This document shows positions 40,271 to 57,375 of a DNA stretch of 64,000 nucleotides, piece after piece; the stretch's first letter is position 1, and the number at the start of each line of letters is the position of its first letter. A program made the position numbers and the translations under genes. Under the pieces are notes generated by a model. That model made no database searches and was not told where the DNA came from. It worked only from the letters and a program-made list of their open reading frames with translations. This DNA is from an uncultured Verrucomicrobiae bacterium (GTDB lineage: Bacteria; Verrucomicrobiota; Verrucomicrobiia; Limisphaerales; JAFGQR01). Location of the stretch: positions 54,904 through 118,903 of the forward strand of contig CAWBHS010000026.1 of assembly GCA_963788655.1 (NCBI GenBank), given 5' to 3'.

Positions 40271-40358
40271 CTCTGTTCTGAGATCCCATGGTGGATTCGT
40301 GTTCCTTCATGATCCTTGGCTTAAGAATTCCGGTTGAAAGTTGCTGCCAATTGGACCA

Positions 40359-40724
40359 ATGCGACCTTTCCAAATCATTTTCAATCCGACCAGCGCTGCT
40401 GAATTGGGCAAAATGCCCAAGGATCTGCAACTTCACATTTTGGGCGAGTTCCGCGGGCTGCCGCAAGAGGTGATCAGCACCGAACTGGAGCGGTTCGGCA
40501 AATTGGAGCGAGCTGGTCGAATATTGCACCGCTTCCGTCTGGGGGACTACCGGATTTACTTCGAACGCCACGAACTCGGTGTGGTCGTTCACCGCATTCT
40601 CAGCAAGAATACGTTGAAAGATTTCCTGTTCCGCTCGAGCCTGCCGGTGGGAGAAGATGAAGCGCTTCAGGATAACCCAAAATTCTGGGAGTTGATCGAA
40701 TCCGCCAAATCCGTCACCGCGTGA
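40359..40724 (+). CDS. RelE/ParE-like protein without adjacent antitoxin
   Basis: FQIIFNPTSAAEL..LHRFRLGDYRIYF..VVHRI resembles the RelE fold. Confidence 0.7.
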   Translation: MRPFQIIFNPTSAAELGKMPKDLQLHILGEFRGLPQEVISTELERFGKLERAGRILHRFRLGDYRIYFERHELGVVVHRILSKNTLKDFLFRSSLPVGEDEALQDNPKFWELIESAKSVTA

Positions 40725-41098: not shown

Positions 41099-41719
41099 TT
41101 ATTTCACATCTTCCCCCAACTCCACATTCCAATACGCCAAATCCAGGAAATGTTTCCAGCTCTTGTGGTAAGGTAGCCCAACGTCGATCTGGACAAATGG
41201 ACGCCATTTGGGCCGTTTGGGTTTGCGGATGAGATGCATTCCCGCTTCGACCGGCGTGCGATTCGCCTTGCGCGTGTTACACTCGATGCAGGAACAGACG
41301 ATGTTTTCCCAGGTCGTCGGTCCGCCACGGTCACGCGGAATCACATGGTCCAGGTTGAGATCGCTGCGGTCACAAATCCGTCCGCAGTATTGGCACGTGT
41401 TCCGGTCGCGTTCAAAAATGTTATGGCGGGTGAACTTGACTTCCTTCTTGGGCATCCGATCAAAGAGCAACAACACGATGACCCGGGGGATGCGGATACG
41501 GAACGAAATCGTGTGGATGCTTTCCGCCTGAGGTTCCTGCTCGGAAAAATCCCGCCACTCGTGAAAGTTGAACGTCTGGAAGGAGCCATCGGCGCAATCC
41601 AACACCGCTTGCGCCCGGCCTTCGAACAGCAGCGTCAACGCCCGGCGCGCCGAGCAAATGTTGACGGCCTGCCAAAGGCGGTTCAAAACCAGCACATGTT
41701 GACTTAGATTTGAAATCAT
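41099..41719 (-). CDS. HNH endonuclease (McrA-like stand-alone family)
   Basis: VLVLN, TRHNIFERD..CQYCG, LDHVIP..GG..WENIVCSC..CN..K.NRTP.EAGM. Confidence 0.92.
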   Translation of the reverse strand: MISNLSQHVLVLNRLWQAVNICSARRALTLLFEGRAQAVLDCADGSFQTFNFHEWRDFSEQEPQAESIHTISFRIRIPRVIVLLLFDRMPKKEVKFTRHNIFERDRNTCQYCGRICDRSDLNLDHVIPRDRGGPTTWENIVCSCIECNTRKANRTPVEAGMHLIRKPKRPKWRPFVQIDVGLPYHKSWKHFLDLAYWNVELGEDVK

Positions 41720-41833
41720 ACGGGGTATGATGTTCGCTGGGAAAAATACCATGCCGGGATTCAAAGTGTCAATGTTTGTGCCCGGGTCGAGTAATCGTTG
41801 CCAAACGGAATTCTTCGCGCTAAGAATTCAGCT

Positions 41834-46816: not shown

Positions 46817-49800
46817 TCAAGCAACGGCCCGCGCCCGGACTTGAGAAAGTAACTCAAGCAACTCGTCAATCTGGGCCGAATTGAAAACGCCTTCCGGGCC
46901 TTGCGGGTTAAGGTCGGTGAACGGGGATTCGTAAAGCAACTCGGGTTGCATCGCGCCATGCTCGGTCAGGTGGTCCACAATCAGATTCACGAACTCGATT
47001 TGATTTGCCGTCAACGTCTTGCCCGCCGTGAATCCGCTCAAAGCCTGCTTGGCTGCTTCGCGGTCCAGGCCCACGAGGGAGCGCACGAACAATCCCAAGC
47101 CTTCTGACTCTGTTTTCGCCTTCGTCAAATGGTCGGGGTTGGTTGCGCCGCCTTCGCCGAGCATCCGCTCCAATTCCTGAAGGTCACTCGTGGTGAGGGG
47201 TTCATTCATTCGCAACTTGTGTATGACCAGATCATGCTCATGCTCACGGAGGAACTGCCGTGTCTTGGCACGGAATCGTTCGTAGCTGTCCGGTGAAGCG
47301 AAACCGGGTAGTTCAATCGCTGTTTCGCTGCCGATTTCGTCCTCGAAATCGGTGTAGATGGGTTTGCGCTGTTGCTTTTCAATCAGCTTTACCAACGGCC
47401 GCAAACGGCGGCGAACATTCTCCAGCATCGGCACGGTTACGTCCTGCCACCATTCATCGGTTTGAATGTCCTGAATCAATGGCATCTGCGCGTTCACCAT
47501 CGGGATGCTCGATTTGTCCTCCAATAGCCCGGCGATTGCTTTTACTTGATCGCTGAGACGTTTGAACGCCGGTTCGACGCGCAGCACGGCCAGTTGCAAA
47601 TTCAGCATGAGCAGATCAAACCGCTTCGCCTCTTCTTCTTCTTCCGCTTCCAGTTCGGACGGCAGTCCGGCGACTTCATGCGCCAATTCGGCGAAGGCTT
47701 CCAGCTTCAATTCGCGCCATGCTTCCGGCTTGGCGTATTTCTCGACCAGCCTGCGTTTCGCGCGGACGACAAAATTCTCCACGTTCATGGCCGCCACTTC
47801 GCCCTGCAACAACGAAGCCACTTCACGCCGCAACGCTGCTTCGTTATCCGGACCTTCCTTTGCCACGCCGGACAATTTGCGATCAAGCTCGCTGATCAAT
47901 TCCAGCCGCCGCGTAAACAGGCGCTTGCCCAGCGATTCGCCCGTCGAACCCTCGACGGTGTTGGGATTCTGGCTGAAGAACTCCAAGTTCTGGCAATAGT
48001 CGAAGATGTAGAAAAACTCCTTGTGCTTGCCCGGCGCGAACAAGTCCGGACACAACCGCGTGCCGCGTCCGACCATCTGCCAGAACTTCGTCTTGGACCG
48101 CACCAGCTTGAAGAACACGAGGTTCACCACCTCCGGGACGTCAATGCCCGTGTCCAGCATGTCCACCGAGATGGCGATATGCGGTGCTTTGTTCTTCTGC
48201 GAGAAATCGTCAATCAGACTTTGCGCGTATTCGGTCTTGAAGGTGATGGTCCGGGCAAACTTCCCGTTGTAGTGAGGGTAGTTCTTGTCGAAGCGTTCCT
48301 GGATGAAATCCGCGTGCGCCTGATTCTTGGCAAAGATGATCGTTTTGCCCAGCCGGTCGCCGCCCGGCGACTTTCTGCCCGCGTGTCATCAAGTGCTCCA
48401 GCACCTTGTCCACCGTGTCCTCGTTGAACAGCCACTTGTTGACCGCCTCGGCTTCCACCGTAGTCGGGCACGTTGCCGTCGTCATCCCACTCCAGCGCAT
48501 CCCATTGTTCCTTTTCCTCATCGGACAAGTCGTCGTATTTGATGCCCTCGCGCTGGAACTTGAGCGGCACGGAGACCGGCTTGGGGGGCACGAGGAACCC
48601 GTCCGCCACCGCTTCCTCCAAATCGTAGGCATCCGTCGGCACGCCCTTTTCCAGGTCGAACAGGCCGTAGGTGTTCCGGTCGATCTCGTCGCTGCGGCGT
48701 CGCGGTCAGACCGACGAGCAACGAATCGAAGTAATCAAAGATGGCACTGTATTTCTGGTAAACCGAGCGGTGCGCCTCGTCAATGATGACGAGATCGAAA
48801 TGCCCGACACCAAAACGCCGCTGCCCGTCTTTTGATTCGTCAATCAAGCCCATCATCGTCGGGTAGGTGGAAACGAACACCCGACCCTCGGTGTCCTTCT
48901 CGGTGACCAGATTCACCGGCGACGCATCGGGCAGATGTCGTTTGAAGGCGTTCACGGCCTGATTCACCAGCGCCACCCGGTCGGCCAGGAACAGCACGCG
49001 CTTCGCCCAGTTGCAGCGCATCAGCAGATCGCACAGCGCGATGGCCGTGCGCGTCTTGCCCCCGCCGGTGGCCATGCACGAGCAGCGTCTTGCGGTCATT
49101 GTCGTTCTCGAACGCCTCGCCGATGCGCCGGACGCCGCGAGTCTGGTAATAACGCTCAACAATCGCGTCGTTGATCTTCGCGTCGGCCAGTGTCTTGCGC
49201 GTGGTGCGGCGCTGAATCAGCAACTCCAGTTCGGCCTTCTTGTAAAAGCCCTGCACTGGTCGGGGCGGATAATTCGTGTCGTCCCAGATCCAATGCTCGT
49301 AGCCGTTCGAGTAAAAGATGATGGGTCGCCGGCCGAACTGCTTTTCCAGACAATCGGCATACAGCTTCGCCTGCTGCTGGCCGACGCGCGGGTCGCGTTT
49401 CGTGCGTTTGGCTTCGACCAGCGCGAGCGGCATGCCGTCGTCGCCCCAGAGCACGTAATCCACGAAGCCCTTTGCCTTCGTTGTTCGGCATTCCCGCCAC
49501 GGGAAACTCCCGGTCGCGTTCCTGGTCCAGCGCCCAGCCCGCTTCTTTGAGCAACAGGTCGATGAAGTAATCGCGCGTCTCGGCTTCGGAATAATTGTGC
49601 GTGTCGGCCTGCGCCGTGTTGGCCTTCTTCGCCTCGGCAATTTCGCTCGCAGCCGCTTCAATTCCGCGTCCAGCGTCGTCTTGTCCGCCAGCAATCGCCG
49701 ACAGCTTTTCGTCGCGCTCATGCAGTTGCGTTTCCAGCCGTTGCAACTGCTCAATGTCTGTTTGGGCAGCGGCGTGGTTTTGGGCAGCGCATTGGGATCA

Positions 49801-50206
49801 AAGGCCAGCCCCGGCGGCGGCTTGGCGCCGCGCGCGTAGGTGTGCGCCAGCCAGTAACCGACATGGAACAATTCCCGCACCGCCGCCAGCGCATCGGAAT
49901 CGCTGGATGTGTTTGTGACTGTGAACCGCCAGATTGCCGAGGTCTTTGATCGAGTTTCGTCTTGGCAAAAACCACCGGCCCGACCGCTGGCTTTGAACGT
50001 CGGCTCATGGATGAGCGCGCTCAGGTTGTCCTGATACGGCAGCTTGAGCGTGGCATCGTGTTTGTAGAGCCAATGCACCATCACTTCCAGCCCTCGCCGC
50101 GCGTAGAAGCACGCCGCCCGGCATCGGGATGGGCCAGCGCCTCCGCCTTGCTCGCCGCGTCGTGCAAGTCGGGCCACTCGGTTTGGAGGAAGGTGAAGTT
50201 GCTCAT
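46817..50206 (-). CDS. hsdR: Type I restriction subunit R (DUF4145 N-domain, EcoAI/EcoEI-like C-domain), several indels
   Basis: Start [29 protein letters not shown] nuclease motif; [41 protein letters not shown]-terminal LYESPFTD. Confidence 0.92.
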
Positions 50207-50684
50207 GGCAGTTTGGTTGATGCGTGTTTCCAACTCCCGCACTTCCTCGATGATGTTCGCAAACGAAGGCGGTTCAGCCAAAAACATTGGTCGCATCGCC
50301 CGATAATCCTTTTCCAGTTCGGCCAGTCTAAAATCCGGCGGCGCAAGCCGGAATGTTCCGGGCTTTGCCGAGTCATACCGCGCCCAACTCGCCGCGAAGA
50401 ACCGGCTCTTCCAATCCGCCACTCGCTGCCGCAAATCCTGCCCGAGCCAGCGCGCGCTCGACCGCCCCATGCCGGGCCAGCGCCGCCATGTCCGAATAGT
50501 GCCGCGAGAACCGGTCGCGCATGGGCTTCGCCGGCTCACGATGATGCTCCGCGTGCAGAATCGTCGCCTTCTCCCAGAAAGTCCGCTCCAGATCCAGCGC
50601 CACCAGTTCGCAGCGAAAATCCGCGAGCTGTTTGGGAATCAGGGCCTGCTCCGGCGCGGGGCGTTTGAAGAATTCCAGTTTCAC
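50203..50684 (-). pseudogene. AbiEii-type nucleotidyltransferase toxin remnant with large internal deletion
   Basis: VKLEFFKRPAPEQALI joined directly to PKQLADFRCELVALDLERTFWEKATILHAE..RFSRHYSD..K.RFF...Y..AKPGTFRL.P..DY..M..MF; catalytic GGT/DxD region absent. Confidence 0.75.
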
Positions 50685-50688
50685 GATT

Positions 50689-51288
50689 TTATGCCCCGGC
50701 CAGTTCGCGAAACAGCGGATGCATCCACGCGGGCGCAAGCCGTAAGTCCTTCAACAACTGCTGCCGCTCCTTGGCGGGCAGCGTGCGTTTCAAATGCTCC
50801 ACGCGCGCCGGGGTGATGTGCTCCTTGCCCAGATGCCGGAACGCCTGCATCAGCAATCCGCTCAATCGCCCCGCCGCCGCCATGTTGCGCGGCGTGGTGC
50901 GGCGCAACTGGATTTCCTGCCGCCCAATCTTCACCGTGCGCGACGACCCGTCCGTGAGGAACACCACCTTGGCCGGCACCTGCTCGGACAGCCCCAACAG
51001 ATTGGTGGCGTAAGCCCCGGCGGGTTGCAATCGAATCCGATCCTTCCCAGCCAGCGCCTTCGCCACCTTCTCAATGTCCGGCGACAACAGCCCCAATTCC
51101 GCGTGCTCGCGGGGATACTCGTAAAGCCCCCGCGCCAGCCGGCGAATCGTCCCCTTGCCCGCCAGACGCGACAACGCCTTGTCCACGGCATCCCGTCCGC
51201 CGATGTCAAAGAAGCTGTTCGGTGTGAACACCGAACCCCTGCCACTGCCGTAAATACGGCTTGTCAACTTGCCATCAATAGTTTGCAT
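50689..51288 (-). CDS. AbiEi-like antitoxin/transcription regulator (DUF6088-like)
   Basis: wHTH AVDKALSRL..G.IRRLARGLY; GAYATNLLGLSEQVP..VFLTDG; upstream of the AbiEii remnant. Confidence 0.85.
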   Translation of the reverse strand: MQTIDGKLTSRIYGSGRGSVFTPNSFFDIGGRDAVDKALSRLAGKGTIRRLARGLYEYPREHAELGLLSPDIEKVAKALAGKDRIRLQPAGAYATNLLGLSEQVPAKVVFLTDGSSRTVKIGRQEIQLRRTTPRNMAAAGRLSGLLMQAFRHLGKEHITPARVEHLKRTLPAKERQQLLKDLRLAPAWMHPLFRELAGA

Positions 51289-51308
51289 TCAATAGTTGCT
51301 GCAAATGT

Positions 51309-51338
51309 TGTCAGGAAAACTACCCACTTTTCCTGACA
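51309..51338. promoter_or_regulatory. Perfect inverted repeat upstream of abiEi (probable autoregulatory operator)
   Basis: TGTCAGGAAAA-N8-TTTTCCTGACA, 20 bp upstream of the abiEi start. Confidence 0.7.
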
Positions 51339-51455
51339 GAACAACCCTTCATTTTTAAGAAATAATGGTCTTCTTTTCTTAACAGCAACCCCGGTAGCAA
51401 CTGTTCGTGCGGACCATGGATGCGCGGTGGGCCAGCTTCAATCCCAGACCGCGCT

Positions 51456-52016
51456 TCATCGCGAGTCCTCCACCGCCTCCACATTGAACAGGAAACGCAC
51501 CAGCTCTTCCAGCTTCCCAGCGCTTGGGCCGTTCAGGCCGTTGCCATACTTGGAGTCGTAATTCTGCGCCCAGTCGGCGGCCAGTTTGTAACCGTCGCTC
51601 GGGTGACGTTGGATGCCGGCGTGCAGGGCCAATCCTTGCTCCACCAGCAACAGCGGCCAGCAGTGGATGATCCGCACCGGCCCCCATTGCTGGTTCTTGA
51701 ATTCGTTCTGGGCCAGCCTGGCGCGCTCGTGCAAATCCTTCGCCGCCTGCGGGGCGAGTTGCTGAAACAGGCTTTCCCGGGTGGCTCCGGTTCCCACCAG
51801 CTTGCGCGCTTCATTGAGCAGTTGCCCAGGCAACCCCGCCGTCTTCCCTTTCCGGCCTGCCGCCTTGCGGGCCACCCACAGACCGAAGGCCGGCAGCCGC
51901 TCCGGGCGCTGCTCAAACCACTTCTTCAACACGGTGAGGCGCGTCAGCGACACGTTGCCCTGACTTTGAATGTCCTCGATGATTTTGAGGATTTTATCGG
52001 GAACAAGGGTGCGCAT
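51456..52016 (-). CDS. Hypothetical protein (R-M locus cargo)
   Basis: Clean 186-aa ORF co-oriented with the hsd genes; no family recognised. Confidence 0.7.
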   Translation of the reverse strand: MRTLVPDKILKIIEDIQSQGNVSLTRLTVLKKWFEQRPERLPAFGLWVARKAAGRKGKTAGLPGQLLNEARKLVGTGATRESLFQQLAPQAAKDLHERARLAQNEFKNQQWGPVRIIHCWPLLLVEQGLALHAGIQRHPSDGYKLAADWAQNYDSKYGNGLNGPSAGKLEELVRFLFNVEAVEDSR

Positions 52017-52025
52017 GGTTGTCTT

Positions 52026-52076
52026 TCAAAGTTTTCCGCGGAAGGCGCGGTGCTGGAAAAAGGCGAAGTTGCTCAT
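52026..52076 (-). other. Chimeric hsdR-start/hsdS-end mini-ORF (cassette junction scar)
   Basis: ATGAGCAACTTCGCCTTTTTCCAGCACCGCGCCTTCCGCGGAAAACTTTGA = MSNFAFFQHRAFRGKL; compare hsdR start MSNFTFLQ and hsdS end FATLQHRAFRGEL*. Confidence 0.85.
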
Positions 52077-52099
52077 GTTGCGCTCTTGAGAGCTTGGAA

Positions 52100-52622
52100 T
52101 CACTCCTGCGGAGGCGGCGGAATCGGCTGTGTGGTCAGCCGCATTTCATCCTGTTCGGGCTTCTCCAGACGGCCCGGGGTGAACCCCTCGGTAAGCAACA
52201 ACACGCGCACACTGGTATGCCCGTTTTGCCGCAGCCGTTCAGTGAGCCGTGACAAGGTATTTCGATCCTCCGTCAGGATCACGGGTATGTTCTCCTCCTC
52301 CGCTTGGGCAAGGATTTTCAGATCGTTGATGATGACCGGGCGGCGATCCTCTGGCGCGGGCACAGTATCGGCACGAAGTGCCCGCAACATAGCCGCGGCT
52401 TTGATGGCGTGCGGGAGATTGTAGGGCTGAACCCGGAAATTCTGAAGAGGAAGATCGCTTACCGGCTGACCAACCTCAAACTCTCCTGCTGCGACAGTCG
52501 AAATCCACATGGGAATCTGCTTCGCGAGGCAATGCCGGAAATAATCCTGCCACCGTATGGTTTGGCCGGTCGGGGTCGGCAAAGGAAATGAGAAAGCTGG
52601 TGTCAAACGAAACCTGTGTCAT
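52100..52622 (-). CDS. PIN-domain ribonuclease (one indel near 52550)
   Basis: Corrected reading MTQVSFDTSFLIS...ISTVAAGEF...INDLKILAQA...ILTED supplies the PIN acidic tetrad. Confidence 0.8.
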
Positions 52623-52626
52623 GGCG

Positions 52627-53409
52627 TCACTGGTTTCCCCTCAAGGCTTCCACCCATCCTGCGGCGGACTTCACGTCCTTCCACGCCTTGCGACCCTTTT
52701 CCCACATTAACGCCAATGCCTGCTCATCCGCTTCCGTGGCCTGTGGCAAAAACTGAACCAAACGCAGATTGCGGAATTCTTTCGTTCGCAAATGCTGCTC
52801 ACCCTGCACCCGCAAATACAGGTGCTTGTAAAGCTGGTTTTCCTTCTCCGCGCCCAACTGCTGCTCGGTTGCGCTCACTCGCACGATTTCGCCGGTATCC
52901 GCCAGCACCAGATGCACATTCGGATCCTGCTTGCCGCCGAGATCAATCACCTTGCCCGCGAGATGCTTCTCGACGCTCACCCATGCGTTCTCTCCCCCAT
53001 GCTGAAACTGGCTCGCGTTCGTCACCCGCAGGGGGTGCGCCTTGTCCCCTGTGCCGACGGCATACACCCGATTGGGAGATTTCCGCGCCCGCGTCTGCCA
53101 CCGCTCGATTACCTGTGCCCGCTTCGGCTGGATGGCATCGAGGTCACCGGTCTGGTCCAGCTTGGCGAGGTCCGCACGAACGTCGGCAGCCAGGAGTTGC
53201 GCGACGAGTGTGACCACCTTCACGGACCCGGTTTCAATGCGCACCCGCGAATCCGCGAGGCTGGCACTGGGCACGTCACCCTTGATGAGCGTTTCCACAT
53301 CCTCAAGGAAACCGCGCAGTGTCGGCAAATCCACCGTCTCCGGCGTCAGTGGCCGCCCGGCCACCACGTCGTCCAGCGAGAAGACCAACTCTGTCAGTTC
53401 GTGCGGCAT
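52627..53409 (-). CDS. Hypothetical protein, partner of the PIN gene
   Basis: Clean 260-aa ORF ending 4 bp before the PIN start; IETGSV, GKVIDLGGKQDPNVHL, ENQLYK, WVEALRG. Confidence 0.8.
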   Translation of the reverse strand: MPHELTELVFSLDDVVAGRPLTPETVDLPTLRGFLEDVETLIKGDVPSASLADSRVRIETGSVKVVTLVAQLLAADVRADLAKLDQTGDLDAIQPKRAQVIERWQTRARKSPNRVYAVGTGDKAHPLRVTNASQFQHGGENAWVSVEKHLAGKVIDLGGKQDPNVHLVLADTGEIVRVSATEQQLGAEKENQLYKHLYLRVQGEQHLRTKEFRNLRLVQFLPQATEADEQALALMWEKGRKAWKDVKSAAGWVEALRGNQ

Positions 53410-53476
53410 ATTGTCTGCAAGGCCAATATCGTCCTGGGCGCTTCTGCCGACAAGCCGAATGTCGGATGCGGCAGGC

Positions 53477-54705
53477 TCATAATTCTCCTCTGAAGGCGCG
53501 GTGCTGGAGGGTGGCGAAGAGCGCGTCCAGCTCCGCCAGCGACGCGCGCTGCGCCGTCTTCAGCGCCGCCACCGCCGTCACTCGCCGGGCGAATTCGCGC
53601 TGCAAGGGGATGGGGGGAACGAAAATGTCCAAGTCGCGCAATCGCGTCCTTGGCAAAGATTGGCCTGACTGCGATGCATGCGCGCTTCTGAATCATTCGC
53701 GCCATCCATTGCGGTGAGTTCCAGGTAGTGACTCCGAGAATACCGGACATGAATGCTGACGATCGCGGCTTCGCCAGCTGTCATCGCGGCGAACGAGAGC
53801 ACAGTGGCTTCGGTCAGTGTGACGATGAGCAACTCGGCCGGATTGTGCCCGAACACGAGATTAGAATGTCCCCGACTTGCGGATCACATCTTCGGCGCAT
53901 TCTCTCATACTCGCTCTTGCCCGAGGTGTATCGACATCCGTCGGTATCAATGAAGCCATCTCGAATGTTCCGTGCGGAAAGCAGTGTAATTCGCTTCCGT
54001 GGTGCGTTTGGGAGTTTGATGATCCCCGTCCGTAATTTTCAGCGCGAGCGTCACCAACCTTCTGGCACTGGGAAGCTTTCGGGTTGGTGAGCCGGGGTCG
54101 CCGAAGAGGTCGAGGAAGAGGGATTGGGTGAGGGAGTCGAGTTGGGCGAGGGCGGCGCGGCGCTTGGCCCGCAACGCCTCCGCCCGGTCCAGCACCTCCG
54201 CGATCCGCCGCTGCTCCGCCAGCGGCGGCAGGGGGATTTCCCAGCTCGCAAAACTCGTCGTGTTGATAACGGCCTGAGCAGACGCCGCCTTGCCTTATCG
54301 CAGCATGCGCCCAGCTGACTCGCAGGAGAACTGACTCAACTGGACCAAGTATTCGGCGATGAAGCTCTGAGCCGCGGTCGCAATGACGAGGAACGTTTGC
54401 CACAGTTTGCACCATCAAGCTCGCGTGGCACGACGGCGAGCATTTACCTCGTCCGCGACTACTCGTGAAACAACAATGTCGCCCGCCTTCAGCTGACGCG
54501 TTTGTCTCGAGCTTGCGATGAAACTCGCGCGCAACGACCTGCTTTCCCGGTTCGACCAAAGCATCTTGGCGATGTGCCGTAGATTCCCAGTCCGCAGGGA
54601 CGGAACGCCGTCGTTGCAAAAGTATTCGGAGCTCGACCGACGTCGCCAACCGTCACGTATTCAGCAACAGCTTCGAGCGGCATTCGTTGATTCACGCGGC
54701 TTCAC
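53477..54705 (-). CDS. hsdS: Type I specificity subunit S; TRDs badly corrupted by indels
   Basis: Central conserved region IPLPPLAEQRRIAEVLDRAEALRAKRR..FLDLFGDP; C-terminal PPIPLQREFARRV..LDALFATLQHRAFRGEL*; TRD fragments DGVPSLRTGN, LKAGDIVVSR, ITDGDHQTP. Confidence 0.85.
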
Positions 54706-54774
54706 CTCAGCATTCCCTCCAGTTCCTTCATGCCCTGCTGAATTTCCGCCTCCAGTTGGCCGAGGGCTTTGAGG
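54700..54774 (-). repeat. 75-bp duplicate of the hsdM 3' end
   Basis: Aligns ungapped to 55805-55879 with 4 mismatches; encodes [23 protein letters not shown]. Confidence 0.92.
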
Positions 54775-54780
54775 CGGTTC

Positions 54781-55801
54781 GGAGTCCCGGCTTTAGCCGG
54801 TGAGCCATCCGTCTGATCCAGCGCGTTGAATTGTTTCGTAATCATCTTGTTTGCGCGTGCCCCACCGCCTGAAGGCGGGACTCCTTACTTCATGCCCTGC
54901 TGTATCTCCGCCTCACCGCCTGAAGGCGGGACTCCATGCGAGGCGGTTCGGCGGTTTGGAGTCCCGGCTTTAGCCGGTGAGTCGTTGGCTATTTCGAGCG
55001 CGTAAAAAGTTTTCATGATCATCGTGTTTGCGTGTGCCCCGCCGCCTGAAGGCGGGACTCCATGCTCATATCCCGGCGTCATCCCACTTCCTGCCGTAGT
55101 CGCGGATGGGATATTCTTTCCAAACACGCTCGACTTCGGCCCGGCCCATCTGTTCGAGGTATTCCGCCGCGCTGCTCCACGGCCATTCCGTCCAGAGCCG
55201 CACATAGCCGTGATGCACCGGGTTGTTGTGAACGTAGTTGACCGTCGCAAAGAAGTGCCGTTCCGAACGCATGAATCTTTCCACCGCGCGGTGGAAGACT
55301 TGTCGCCCGCGCGTGCTTTCCTCGCCGTTCCAAGTGTGGCTGGTGCGTCCGTGGAGGCGTCCCAACTCATGGAGCAGCTTGAGGATGTTCGGAGCTTCGA
55401 CCAGAGCGTGGTAGTGATTGGGTAACACGCACCACGCGATAGTCCGGGCGGCGTGCTGCTGAAACAGTTCCAGCAAGGTGGCGGAAAAACCATCCAGGCG
55501 TTGCGGGGAAAATCCGATGTGGTGCGCGTGTTCGTAGCAGGCAGCGGTGATGAGAAAGTGAAGGTGGCCGTAGTTCGGACGATGCGGTGGTGAATGCCAA
55601 GGACGGCCATTCTCTTTGCGCCAAGCCAGAACTTCCTCGCGCTGTTTGGGCGTGAGCTGCCGCCAGATGTAGCGAGGCGTGGACATGTCAGTGGCATGGA
55701 GTCCCGGCTTCAGCCGGTGGGGCGTCCGTCATGTCGAGGGTGTTGGATGTTTTCGTGGTCATCGTGTTTGCGTGCGGCTCACCGGCTAAAGTCGGGACTC
55801 C
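54781..55801 (-). mobile_element. REPtron: RAYT gene with three 104-bp REPINs (54781-54884, 54958-55061, 55698-55801) and one extra REP (54916-54935)
   Basis: 20-bp GGAG-headed arms GGAGTCCCGGCTTTAGCCGG / CCGCCTGAAGGCGGGACTCC with 64-bp homologous spacers, flanking an HUH transposase. Confidence 0.9.
55066..55686 (-). CDS. REP-associated tyrosine transposase (RAYT/TnpA-REP, Y1 HUH)
   Basis: FLITAAC, WCVLPNHYHALV (HUH), NYVHNNPVHHG (catalytic Tyr), WPWSS. Confidence 0.92.
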   Translation of the reverse strand: MSTPRYIWRQLTPKQREEVLAWRKENGRPWHSPPHRPNYGHLHFLITAACYEHAHHIGFSPQRLDGFSATLLELFQQHAARTIAWCVLPNHYHALVEAPNILKLLHELGRLHGRTSHTWNGEESTRGRQVFHRAVERFMRSERHFFATVNYVHNNPVHHGYVRLWTEWPWSSAAEYLEQMGRAEVERVWKEYPIRDYGRKWDDAGI

Positions 55802-55806
55802 GAACT

Positions 55807-57375
55807 TCACTTCAGCATCCCCTCCAGTTCCTTCATGCCCTGCTGAATCTCCGCCTCCAGTCGGCCGAGGGCTTTGAGGATTTCGCCCGGCGGGCGGTGC
55901 GCGACTTCGGCGTGGACGACTTCCTTGTAGCGGTTGAGCGAGAGGTCGTAACCTTGATTGCGGATTTCGGATTGCGGAATGCGGAATGATTTGAGCGGTG
56001 CGCGGGCGGTTTTCTTCTTCAATCCGCATTCTGCGATCCGCATTCCGCAATTTGCCCCAGCGGGCGAGGATGTCGGGCAGGTTGTTCTTCGCGTGGTCGT
56101 CGGCGGTGAGCGCGGTCCGGGGCACTGGGCCGAGCTTTTCCGGCGGGAGGAGTTCGGTGCGTTTGTCGTCGAGCGACAGGCCGTCGGCCTCCACCTTGTA
56201 GAACCAGACGTGGTCCGTGCCGCCGGAGTTGGTCTTGGTGAAGAGGAGGATGGCGGTGGAGACGCCGGCGTAGGGCTTGAACACGCCGCCGGGCAGGGAG
56301 ATGACGGCGTCGAGTTTCTGGTCTTCGACGAGAATCCGGCGCAGGGTCTTGTGCGCCTTGGACGAGCCAAAAAGCACGCCGTCGGGCACAATGACGGCGG
56401 CGCGTCCGCCGGGCTTCAGCAGGCGCAGGAAGAGGGCGAGGAAGAGCAGTTCGGTTTTCTTGGTCTTGACGATTTGCTGGAGGTCCTTGGCGCAGTTCTC
56501 GTAGTCGAGCGACCCGGCGAAAGGCGGATTGGCGAGGACGAGCGTGTATTTTTCCTCCTCGCCCGCGTGGTCCTGCGCCAGGGAGTCGCGGTAGCGGATG
56601 TCGGGATTTTCCACGCCGTGCAGGAGCATGTTCATGCTGCCGATGCGGAGCATGGTATTGTCGAAGTCGAACCGTGGAAGAGGTGATGGTGGAAATGTTT
56701 CTTGAGCTTGGCGTCGCGGAGCAGTTCCGGGTGGTGGCGCCGGAGATATTCACCGACCGCCACGGGGAAACCGCAAGTGCCGCCGGCGGGGTCGCACATG
56801 ATGTCCGTGGGCACCGGGCGCACCAGTTCGACCATGAGCTGGATGATGTGGCGCGGGGTGCGGAACTGGCCGTTCTGCCCGGCGCTGGCGATCTTCCCGA
56901 GCATGTATTCGTAGAGGTCGCCCTTGGTGTCGCGGTCCTCCATCGGCACGCCGTCAATCATGTCCACCACCTTGGCCAGCAGCGCGGGCGTGGGAATGGT
57001 GAACCGCGCATCTTTCATGTGGTGCGCGTAAGTGGAGTCGTCGCCGCCCATCTGGCGCAGGAATGGAAAGACGTGTTCGCTCACGACACTGAACATTTCC
57101 TTGGCTTCAAAATGCTTGAAGCGCGACCAGCGGAGGTCTTCGTAGGGACGCGGCGTGCGCGGATGATCATCTTTGCCAGCGGGAAAGACGCGGCGTTCCA
57201 TCGATTTCTTGAGCCGGGTGGATTTGTTTTCCTCCAGCGTGTGCAGATCATCGAGGCGCTTGAGGAAGAGCAGGTAGGTGATTTGCTCGATGACTTCGAG
57301 CGGGTTGGCGATACCGCCGGACCAGAAGGCATTCCAAAGAGCGTCAACTTGATTGCGAATGGTACCGGTAAGCAT
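55807..57375 (-). CDS. hsdM: Type I methyltransferase subunit M (indels near 56670 and 55990)
   Basis: [65 protein letters not shown], ending MKELEGMLK*. Confidence 0.93.
55956..56051. repeat. Inverted pair of heptamer tandem repeats (TGCGGAA/TTCCGCA) inside hsdM
   Basis: GATTGCGGATTTCGGATTGCGGAATGCGGAAT (55956-55987) and AATCCGCATTCTGCGATCCGCATTCCGCAAT (56021-56051). Confidence 0.8.

Follow-up and report, generated by a model that had tools for sequence, protein, structure and literature searches.

Chimeric hsdR-hsdS scars between cargo blocks of a Type I restriction-modification operon recur in related loci

Genes carried between hsdS and hsdR of Type I restriction-modification (R-M) operons are a known source of new anti-phage systems, and the sections of PMC12255303 and 10.1101/2024.01.29.577857 considered here leave open the route by which such cargo arrives and accumulates. 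We analysed one such operon in a 64,000-nucleotide (nt) stretch of DNA, hereafter the window, from an uncultured Verrucomicrobiae bacterium of the order Limisphaerales (assembly GCA_963788655.1, contig CAWBHS010000026.1, positions 54,904 to 118,903), together with a short scar between two of its cargo blocks in which the start of hsdR is fused to the end of hsdS. All features lie on the minus strand, in the order hsdM, a RAYT-like transposase gene flanked by REP-like palindromes, a duplicate of the hsdM end, hsdS, ORF260, a PIN-domain gene, the scar, ORF186, AbiEi, half of AbiEii and hsdR. The operon is of Type I, and extra genes in its own orientation lie between hsdM, hsdS and hsdR.

The methyltransferase gene hsdM (55807..57375) is spread over three reading frames by tblastn and matches Pfam HsdM_N and N6_Mtase and PADLOC MTase_I. 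The specificity gene hsdS (53477..54695, start approximate), found by PADLOC Specificity_I and tblastn, is frameshifted, and we refer to its final 43 nt (53477-53519) as the native S-tail. hsdR (46817..50206) is of the ~1120-residue type with HSDR_N and EcoEI_R_C domains and has several frameshifts; its first 24 nt are the native R-head. Block 1 comprises ORF260 (52627..53409), of unknown function, which has no family above cut-off and falls in unnamed Atlas clusters at 0.97, and the PIN-domain gene (52100..52622; PF01850, E 1.2e-5). The latter has a frameshift near 52546, a site at which a contig of sequencing run X2 has two extra bases. Block 2 comprises ORF186 (51456..52016), also of unknown function and without a family match, an AbiEi-type antitoxin gene (50689..51288; DUF6088, E 1e-49; PADLOC AbiEi, E 7e-71) and the C-terminal half of AbiEii (50207..50690). 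This last frame is frameshifted, corresponds to residues 143-313 of a 314-residue homologue, thus lacking ~140 N-terminal residues, and reads in frame into hsdR at its end; the truncation is either real decay or an assembly error. The block contents named in an earlier reading of the sequence, the original prediction, stand for ORF260, PIN, ORF186 and AbiEi, but AbiEii is present only as its C-terminal half. ORF186 has an Atlas match to an Imm5 cluster at 0.92 with a low recognition score, and we treat an Imm5-like function as a lead only. A defence role for the cargo is suggested by the AbiE and PIN family matches, ORF260 and ORF186 having no family. The frameshifts in hsdM, hsdS, hsdR and PIN suggest an error-prone assembly. 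No public sequencing run contains the stretch (best share 0.12); given this and the many frameshifts, single bases of the scar may be wrong.

The scar (52026..52076) is a frame of 16 codons in which an hsdR head runs into an hsdS tail; it ends 9 nt ahead of ORF186 and translates as MSNFAFFQHRAFRGKL followed by a stop. Its first 24 nt agree with the local hsdR start at 20 positions, and its last 43 nt agree with the local hsdS end at 34 (79%). By alignment, the two local parents match each other at 12 of 15 nt across the crossover, and in the order-wide consensus the same register matches at 13 of 15, tied for the best 15-nt match. The hsdR-head score of the scar was 18.6, against a maximum of 13.6 among 150 random segments. 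Throughout the 8.96-Mb genome, hsdR-head matches with at most 4 mismatches in 24 occur at the true hsdR start and the scar only, while tail matches with at most 6 in 30 are confined to three places, namely the scar, the native hsdS end and an hsdS-like end on contig C62; no other match to the scar with up to 12 mismatches was found there. The resemblance to both gene ends is thereby confirmed as not due to chance, in keeping with the original prediction of a chimeric scar at a microhomology of its parents. The suggestion that its halves came from other loci also held, as the 3′ end of the scar resembles the hsdS ends that precede ORF186 elsewhere rather than the window's own hsdS end. An ATGAGC, the hexamer that opens hsdR, does overlap the hsdS stop, and the short frame that it begins does not share the register of ORF260. 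We reject the idea that it is a relic of hsdR, since 11 of 24 native hsdS ends have an ATG or GTG across their stop. A possible decayed third S-tail behind ORF186, near 51430, was unsupported by the 45-nt matrix (score -51).

In its exact register the scar is rare, while the general class to which it belongs is common. A pattern for the exact register was searched in 185,579 genomes and in metagenome contigs. It gave 48 matches in the genomes, two of them in hsd loci (L040, L077): one on a contig of G033, from the window's order, and one in G401, where hsdR lies 10.6 kb further on. A further match, L081, is a plausible orphan tail, the remaining 45 are chance-like, and so are both matches in the metagenome contigs. 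A pattern for the hsdS end alone, by comparison, gave 69 matches in 48 of the 401 genomes of the window's order, against 7 for a reversed control, and ten contigs held two to four same-strand matches within 5 kb. We fetched the regions around 40 of the hsdS-end matches, having fetched 16 regions beforehand, and 24 held a whole hsdS-to-hsdR interval; excluded from this count were loci of R-M-S order, cut contigs and matches that fell outside hsd loci, as well as G361, which repeats the loci of G074. Extra copies of the hsdS end occur in 14 of the 24 intervals, with 19 copies against 0.26 expected and none on the reverse strand. Some loci carry three extra copies, and the first hsdS end of G120 and of G314 is no more than a remnant. 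Comparable scars recur in other hsd loci, and the original view that the scar joins cargo units flanked by the end of an hsdS and the start of an hsdR is supported. The number of extra tails also rises with the number of cargo genes, a relation proposed earlier as a check (Spearman rho 0.57, n=24, the genomes being related).

The frequency of extra hsdS ends differs between lineages. In the order of G402, where 14 of 301 genomes matched and 10 were fetched, none of seven intervals had one, and a remnant of an hsdR start was present in one; in cyanobacteria, one of nine intervals did (22 of 201 genomes matched, 20 fetched). Plasmids of alphaproteobacteria and actinomycetes gave none in four intervals and two more loci without cargo. 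In E. coli, 247 of 5426 genomes matched hsdM, and only weakly (best 66% over one third of the query). The complete Leptolyngbya plasmid AP017309.1 carries a 99-nt copy of the hsdS end between two blocks (L178:9129-9228), which argues against metagenome mis-assembly. This copy starts at GCGATCG, which may be the microhomology used and resembles the cyanobacterial HIP1 repeat. We also observed orphan units or tails away from hsd loci (L177:9806-11239, L120:6330-7069, L081 near 10000 and L171 near 6450); one on a Gloeocapsopsis plasmid consists of an S-tail, a toxin-antitoxin pair and an hsdR head, and one in G393 of an S-tail, a decayed ORF186 and a second S-tail. Separately, G074 and G361, labelled as different families, have near-identical hsd loci (L032/L104, L036/L105, L100/L106, L112), and G049 shares one joint with them; this likeness reflects either recent transfer or binning overlap.

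The left partner of an extra hsdS end is often not hsdR, and many extra ends have no hsdR half. At 7 of 25 displayed sites the left side scores above the null maximum as an hsdR head: the register is -84 in the window, G033 and G401, -21 in G242, +84 in G005 and near +42 in G120, and at the seventh site, in G290, the right half is decayed. Other extra tails are joined to the end of a cargo gene, to hsdM (G114) or to REP. At the protein level, among 120 of the 258 matches to the G005 chimera, 17 (the query included) are in-frame R-head/S-tail fusions, in ten registers. Seams of this kind are also present in a second Type I subfamily, where G081 has three, separating four blocks, and G227 has two; these were judged from the sequences and are unscored. 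The direct repeat that results is variable in length, 43 nt in the window and ~21-130 nt across loci by ungapped match.

To compare joints with chance we used consensus parents and 14 joints in 12 classes, leaving out G120, G290, G081 and five protein chimeras whose joints border on the range of the consensus or lie outside it. The parents match at 7.9 of 12 nt at the joints, against 5.9 at in-frame null positions (12 joint classes, resampling P ~2e-5). This joint-level test was preferred over a register-level test, which long overlaps inflate. Register -84 is one of the two best parent matches available. The joints have no fixed site; they use ten or more registers, usually at short matches. 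Recombination at a single F-x-x-L-Q site, as first envisaged, is therefore not upheld: that register does recur, but alongside three other registers in DNA and ten in proteins. The single-site model is further weakened because many extra hsdS ends lack an hsdR half and because trimming of a longer scar can yield a short one. We considered whether in-frame joints point to selection and did not accept this, because strong matches are already commoner in frame (10% versus 3.5% of registers), the protein search detects in-frame fusions only, and the G227 joint is out of frame.

Gene ends move together with the cargo beside them. Homologues of ORF186 occur in 27 of the 401 genomes of the window's order; in 7 of 29 distinct loci they start 7-9 nt behind an hsdS end, and most of the others lie outside hsd loci. 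Homologues of ORF260 occur in the intervals of G196, G206 and G326, and in G196 and G206 block 1 (ORF260-PIN) stands directly before hsdR. Layouts like those of the presumed parents are hsdS-ORF260-PIN-hsdR in G196 and hsdS-ORF186-x-AbiE-hsdR in G121. Over the parts of the window that it covers, a contig of run X2 agrees with block 1 and with the scar as far as nt 17 of the latter, where it passes into hsdR (joint 52060 to 50111). These scar-free layouts come from other species and an X2 contig, not from strain pairs. In Ruegeria TM1040, the first block of G401 stands directly ahead of hsdR. Different orders of the same cassettes, which the original prediction had named as something to look for, were found in a single orientation: ORF260-PIN then ORF186 in the window, ORF186 then ORF260-PIN in G206, and ORF260-PIN alone in G196. 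We also saw homologues of ORF186 right behind the ends of other genes (L138, L140, L141); L138 contains an hsdS-like match and, further on, an hsdS-like piece, which suggests that the same process may act at another R-M type.

Scars also change after they form. The G120 scar is a 32-residue-shorter form of protein P0008, showing that scars are trimmed, and both scars of G227 share one 255-nt joint, so that a scar must have been copied. Decay increases away from hsdS in G081 (0.97, 0.96, 0.87) and G127 (0.86, 0.83), and G242 has no gradient (0.91, 0.87, 0.94); the order fits entry at the hsdS end in two of the three arrays. An open reading frame (ORF) of at least 75 residues begins within 15 nt of the tail stop at 11 of the 19 extra tails. 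Cargo in related intervals includes HEC-01, HEC-05, GmrSD, PDC-S31/S35, DrmC-like, TIR and HNH genes. One scar-bounded block of G081 (L093) holds the non-defence genes UvdE, an NAD-binding DUF2867 gene, a polyketide cyclase-like gene and TspO, and cargo is therefore not limited to defence.

The junction between hsdM and hsdS has a related structure. The RAYT-like Y1 transposase gene (55066..55686; Y1_Tnp, E 0.0012; NF047646, 72 bits, both below curated cut-offs) is flanked by REP-like palindromes found by repeat comparison (54773-55066 and 55690-55806), a motif with 20 near copies in the genome. Beyond it lies the second hsdM 3′ end (54700..54774), a 75-nt copy 95% identical to 55805-55879, which is a scar of the same kind. 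On an X2 contig the hsdM end is joined to hsdS without the insert that lies within 54700-55879 of the window. Copies of the hsdM end are also present in G127, G342, G120 and G719, and the hsdM-hsdS junction thus has scars of its own. Elsewhere, a REP or RAYT insert stands directly behind hsdS and is followed by a copy of the hsdS end (L127, L091, L128, L113), and five proteins have in common a REP-derived left half joined to an S-tail (P0012, P0014, P0015, P0017, P0023). Downstream of the locus, we noted by eye from translations an HNH-endonuclease-like ORF (41099-41764) and a RelE-like ORF (40341-40724).

We give an even chance to the reading that the scar is the seam of an unequal exchange between hsd loci, made with one long homologous anchor and one microhomology joint. 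Two loci of equal layout (hsdM-hsdS-cargo-hsdR) would exchange DNA unequally: one end of the exchange would lie in the long homology of conserved hsd genes, and at the other, DNA just behind cargo A, often within its hsdR start, would join the hsdS end before cargo B at a short chance match. The product would have a whole hsdS, a whole hsdR and both cargos; selection would keep such products, and deletions would then shorten the seam. The donor, we infer, would be linear DNA with a long anchor, and no dedicated recombinase would be needed. Selection may keep the hsdS end for its purine-rich last codons, a putative ribosome-binding site for cargo B, and the seam of R-head and S-tail could then offer a short homologous landing site to later events. 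The structure of the seam, its recurrence, the variable joints with their excess of microhomology, the joint travel of gene end and cargo, trimming and scar duplication are all observed in the loci described above. A ComEC-family gene in the genome lends weak support, as it is also present in 10 of 14 control genomes.

Several points weigh against unequal exchange. No long anchor was observed among the loci compared, which include no strain pair with and without a block, and 3 of the 14 tested joints have only 4 of 12 matches to the consensus. The joints are confined to the first ~60 hsdR codons and, mostly, the conserved hsdS end. Longer pieces would be expected from random donor ends, and trimming or selection has to be invoked in addition. 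The frequency of extra tails is uneven, at 14 of 24 intervals in the window's order against 0 of 7, 1 of 9 and 0 of 4 elsewhere, and a generic process leaves this unexplained. Lastly, three integron-integrase-like genes lie on other contigs of the genome.

These last two points also favour a rival reading, in which the joints are made in trans by a dedicated enzyme such as an integron integrase or the REP-associated Y1 transposase. To them may be added the RAYT or REP elements beside duplicated hsd ends in the window, G127, G272, G098 and G206, and the five proteins that share a REP-derived left half on an S-tail. However, the crossover is not fixed, there is no hairpin at the scar, S-tail or R-head (z -0.13 to 2.8) and no GTTRRRY at the scar, and most R-S seams have no REP in the adjacent displayed stretch; we find such an enzyme improbable. 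An assembly artefact, or a one-off accident in the window's genome, is scarcely credible. The assembly is rich in frameshifts, no public run contains the stretch, and the supporting loci are mostly metagenome assemblies; yet neither local parent is identical to the scar, tails that precede ORF186 in other loci match its end, scars with accumulated decay recur in many genomes, and the 99-nt S-tail copy between two blocks of AP017309.1 lies on a complete isolate plasmid.

Two further routes were considered. In the first, which corresponds to the original integron-like model without an integrase, S-tail and R-head would join at a microhomology and release the cargo as a circle; the circle, bearing one scar, would re-enter another locus by a single crossover, either at one of the two gene ends (of hsdS or at the start of hsdR) or at a scar already present. 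We hold this to be unlikely, though not strongly so: it explains why scars contain just the two flanking ends of a cargo, why hsdS stays whole and why G227 has a shared joint, and it agrees with cargo lying between two S-tails in G120, G069, G127 and, away from hsd genes, G393, and with decay that rises with distance from hsdS in G081 and G127. G242, however, has no such gradient, and no circle was seen among the contigs examined. The reciprocal hsdS-hsdR fusion is absent among 120 listed of 819 matches, a weak test as only two short hsdR pieces are among them, and likewise no open frame longer than 1186 residues was found at 39 hsdR matches; a non-replicating circle must in addition move between cells. 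Alternatively, two whole hsd loci or a duplicated cargo slot may have come to stand side by side, with microhomology deletions removing the redundant hsdR-hsdM-hsdS down to a short scar. Trimming is demonstrated by G120 and P0008, decayed loci with short M, S and R stubs surround intact cargo (G120, G314, G114 and the Gloeocapsopsis plasmid), and remnants form a length series of ~100-130 nt for S and up to ~60 codons for R. Yet the fetched regions contain no tandem pair of whole loci, and no cargo family occurs twice in one interval (85 cargo ORFs plus those of the window), and we regard this origin as unlikely, marginally more so than the circle.

As the scars record joints base by base, the question of how cargo accumulates becomes testable. 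They mark the boundaries of cassettes, so that genes between two scars moved as a unit, and these boundaries help in assembling candidate systems from uncharacterised genes, ORF260 with PIN being one example. Many short database entries named hsdS, hsdR or hypothetical are such scars. If unequal exchange is the true route, scars show how R-M operons pile up extra genes without a dedicated enzyme. More tentatively, and with a possibility well short of even, Type I R-M operons could be recombinase-free cassette platforms, whose S-tail-cargo-R-head units circulate as circles or short fragments; a single chimeric site would be both ribosome-binding site and reusable landing site, arrays would grow and reshuffle in integron fashion through the operon's own gene ends, and some lineages would have a factor that raises the frequency.

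An integron is defined by a linked IntI, attC hairpins with a GTTRRRY core, a fixed crossover and circular cassettes that insert with polarity. The original prediction called the platform integrase-free and integron-like. The first term holds for the contig of the window (C26), which has no match to PF00589 or TIGR02249; elsewhere in the genome there are 20 PF00589 matches, and three IntI-like genes exceed the TIGR02249 cut-off (contigs C59, C49 and C69), two of them with an internal stop. The second holds for the layout only. As in an integron, blocks stand head to tail in one orientation, with a related short sequence at each boundary, and occur in different orders; unlike in an integron, there is no linked integrase, hairpin, core site or fixed crossover, and the boundary is protein-coding sequence of the host operon. 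An attC-like structure was rejected: the scar forms no such hairpin (fold z -0.04 and 0.73 for the two strands), and GTTRRRY occurs 3 times in 3558 nt against 4.5 expected, never at the scar. The locus is not an integron, although in its working it has some likeness to a cassette array.

Homology-facilitated illegitimate recombination adds foreign DNA through a long homologous anchor and a microhomology joint at variable positions. The loci studied here likewise have short microhomology at variable joints (7.9 versus 5.9 of 12 nt), but that process does not by itself cover the way their joints cluster at two gene ends or the fact that scars are re-used. Insertion with long target duplication, reportedly described by Nobusato and colleagues in 2000, is another close relative. 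In the parts of Furuta et al. 2010 (PMC2853133) considered here, it is characterised by long, variable direct repeats, often spanning a start or stop, with no mobile element and the target gene intact. Here too the direct repeat exceeds 30 bp in the window and varies in length, and the contig of the window has no recombinase. In that process, however, R-M genes are the insert, as Furuta's definition demands, even if some targets are R-M genes, whereas here the hsd operon is the target and the cargo the insert. The repeat, moreover, is the operon's own gene end, often fused to an hsdR start, and up to four blocks are stacked.

Closest in position are genes embedded in Type I R-M operons, such as PrrC in EcoprrI, DarTG2 and the cassettes of Payne et al., which occupy the same hsdS-hsdR slot with defence-type cargo in operon orientation. 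The consulted parts of PMC12707154 treat PrrC and the immigration control region, and those of PMC12255303 treat DarTG2 in the RRDM island of enteropathogenic E. coli (EPEC) and describe the site between hsdS and hsdR as a potential hotspot of recombination. The catalogue of embedded cassettes by Payne et al. (10.1101/2024.01.29.577857) offers no mechanism and invokes a genomic sink, the word recombination being absent from the main text. In those portions of PMC12255303 and 10.1101/2024.01.29.577857, neither gene-end scars nor a route of accumulation is described, and we found no description of such scars in the literature outside subscription journals and supplements. The scars are confirmed as real and recurrent, and they combine features of embedded cargo, long target duplication and microhomology joints.

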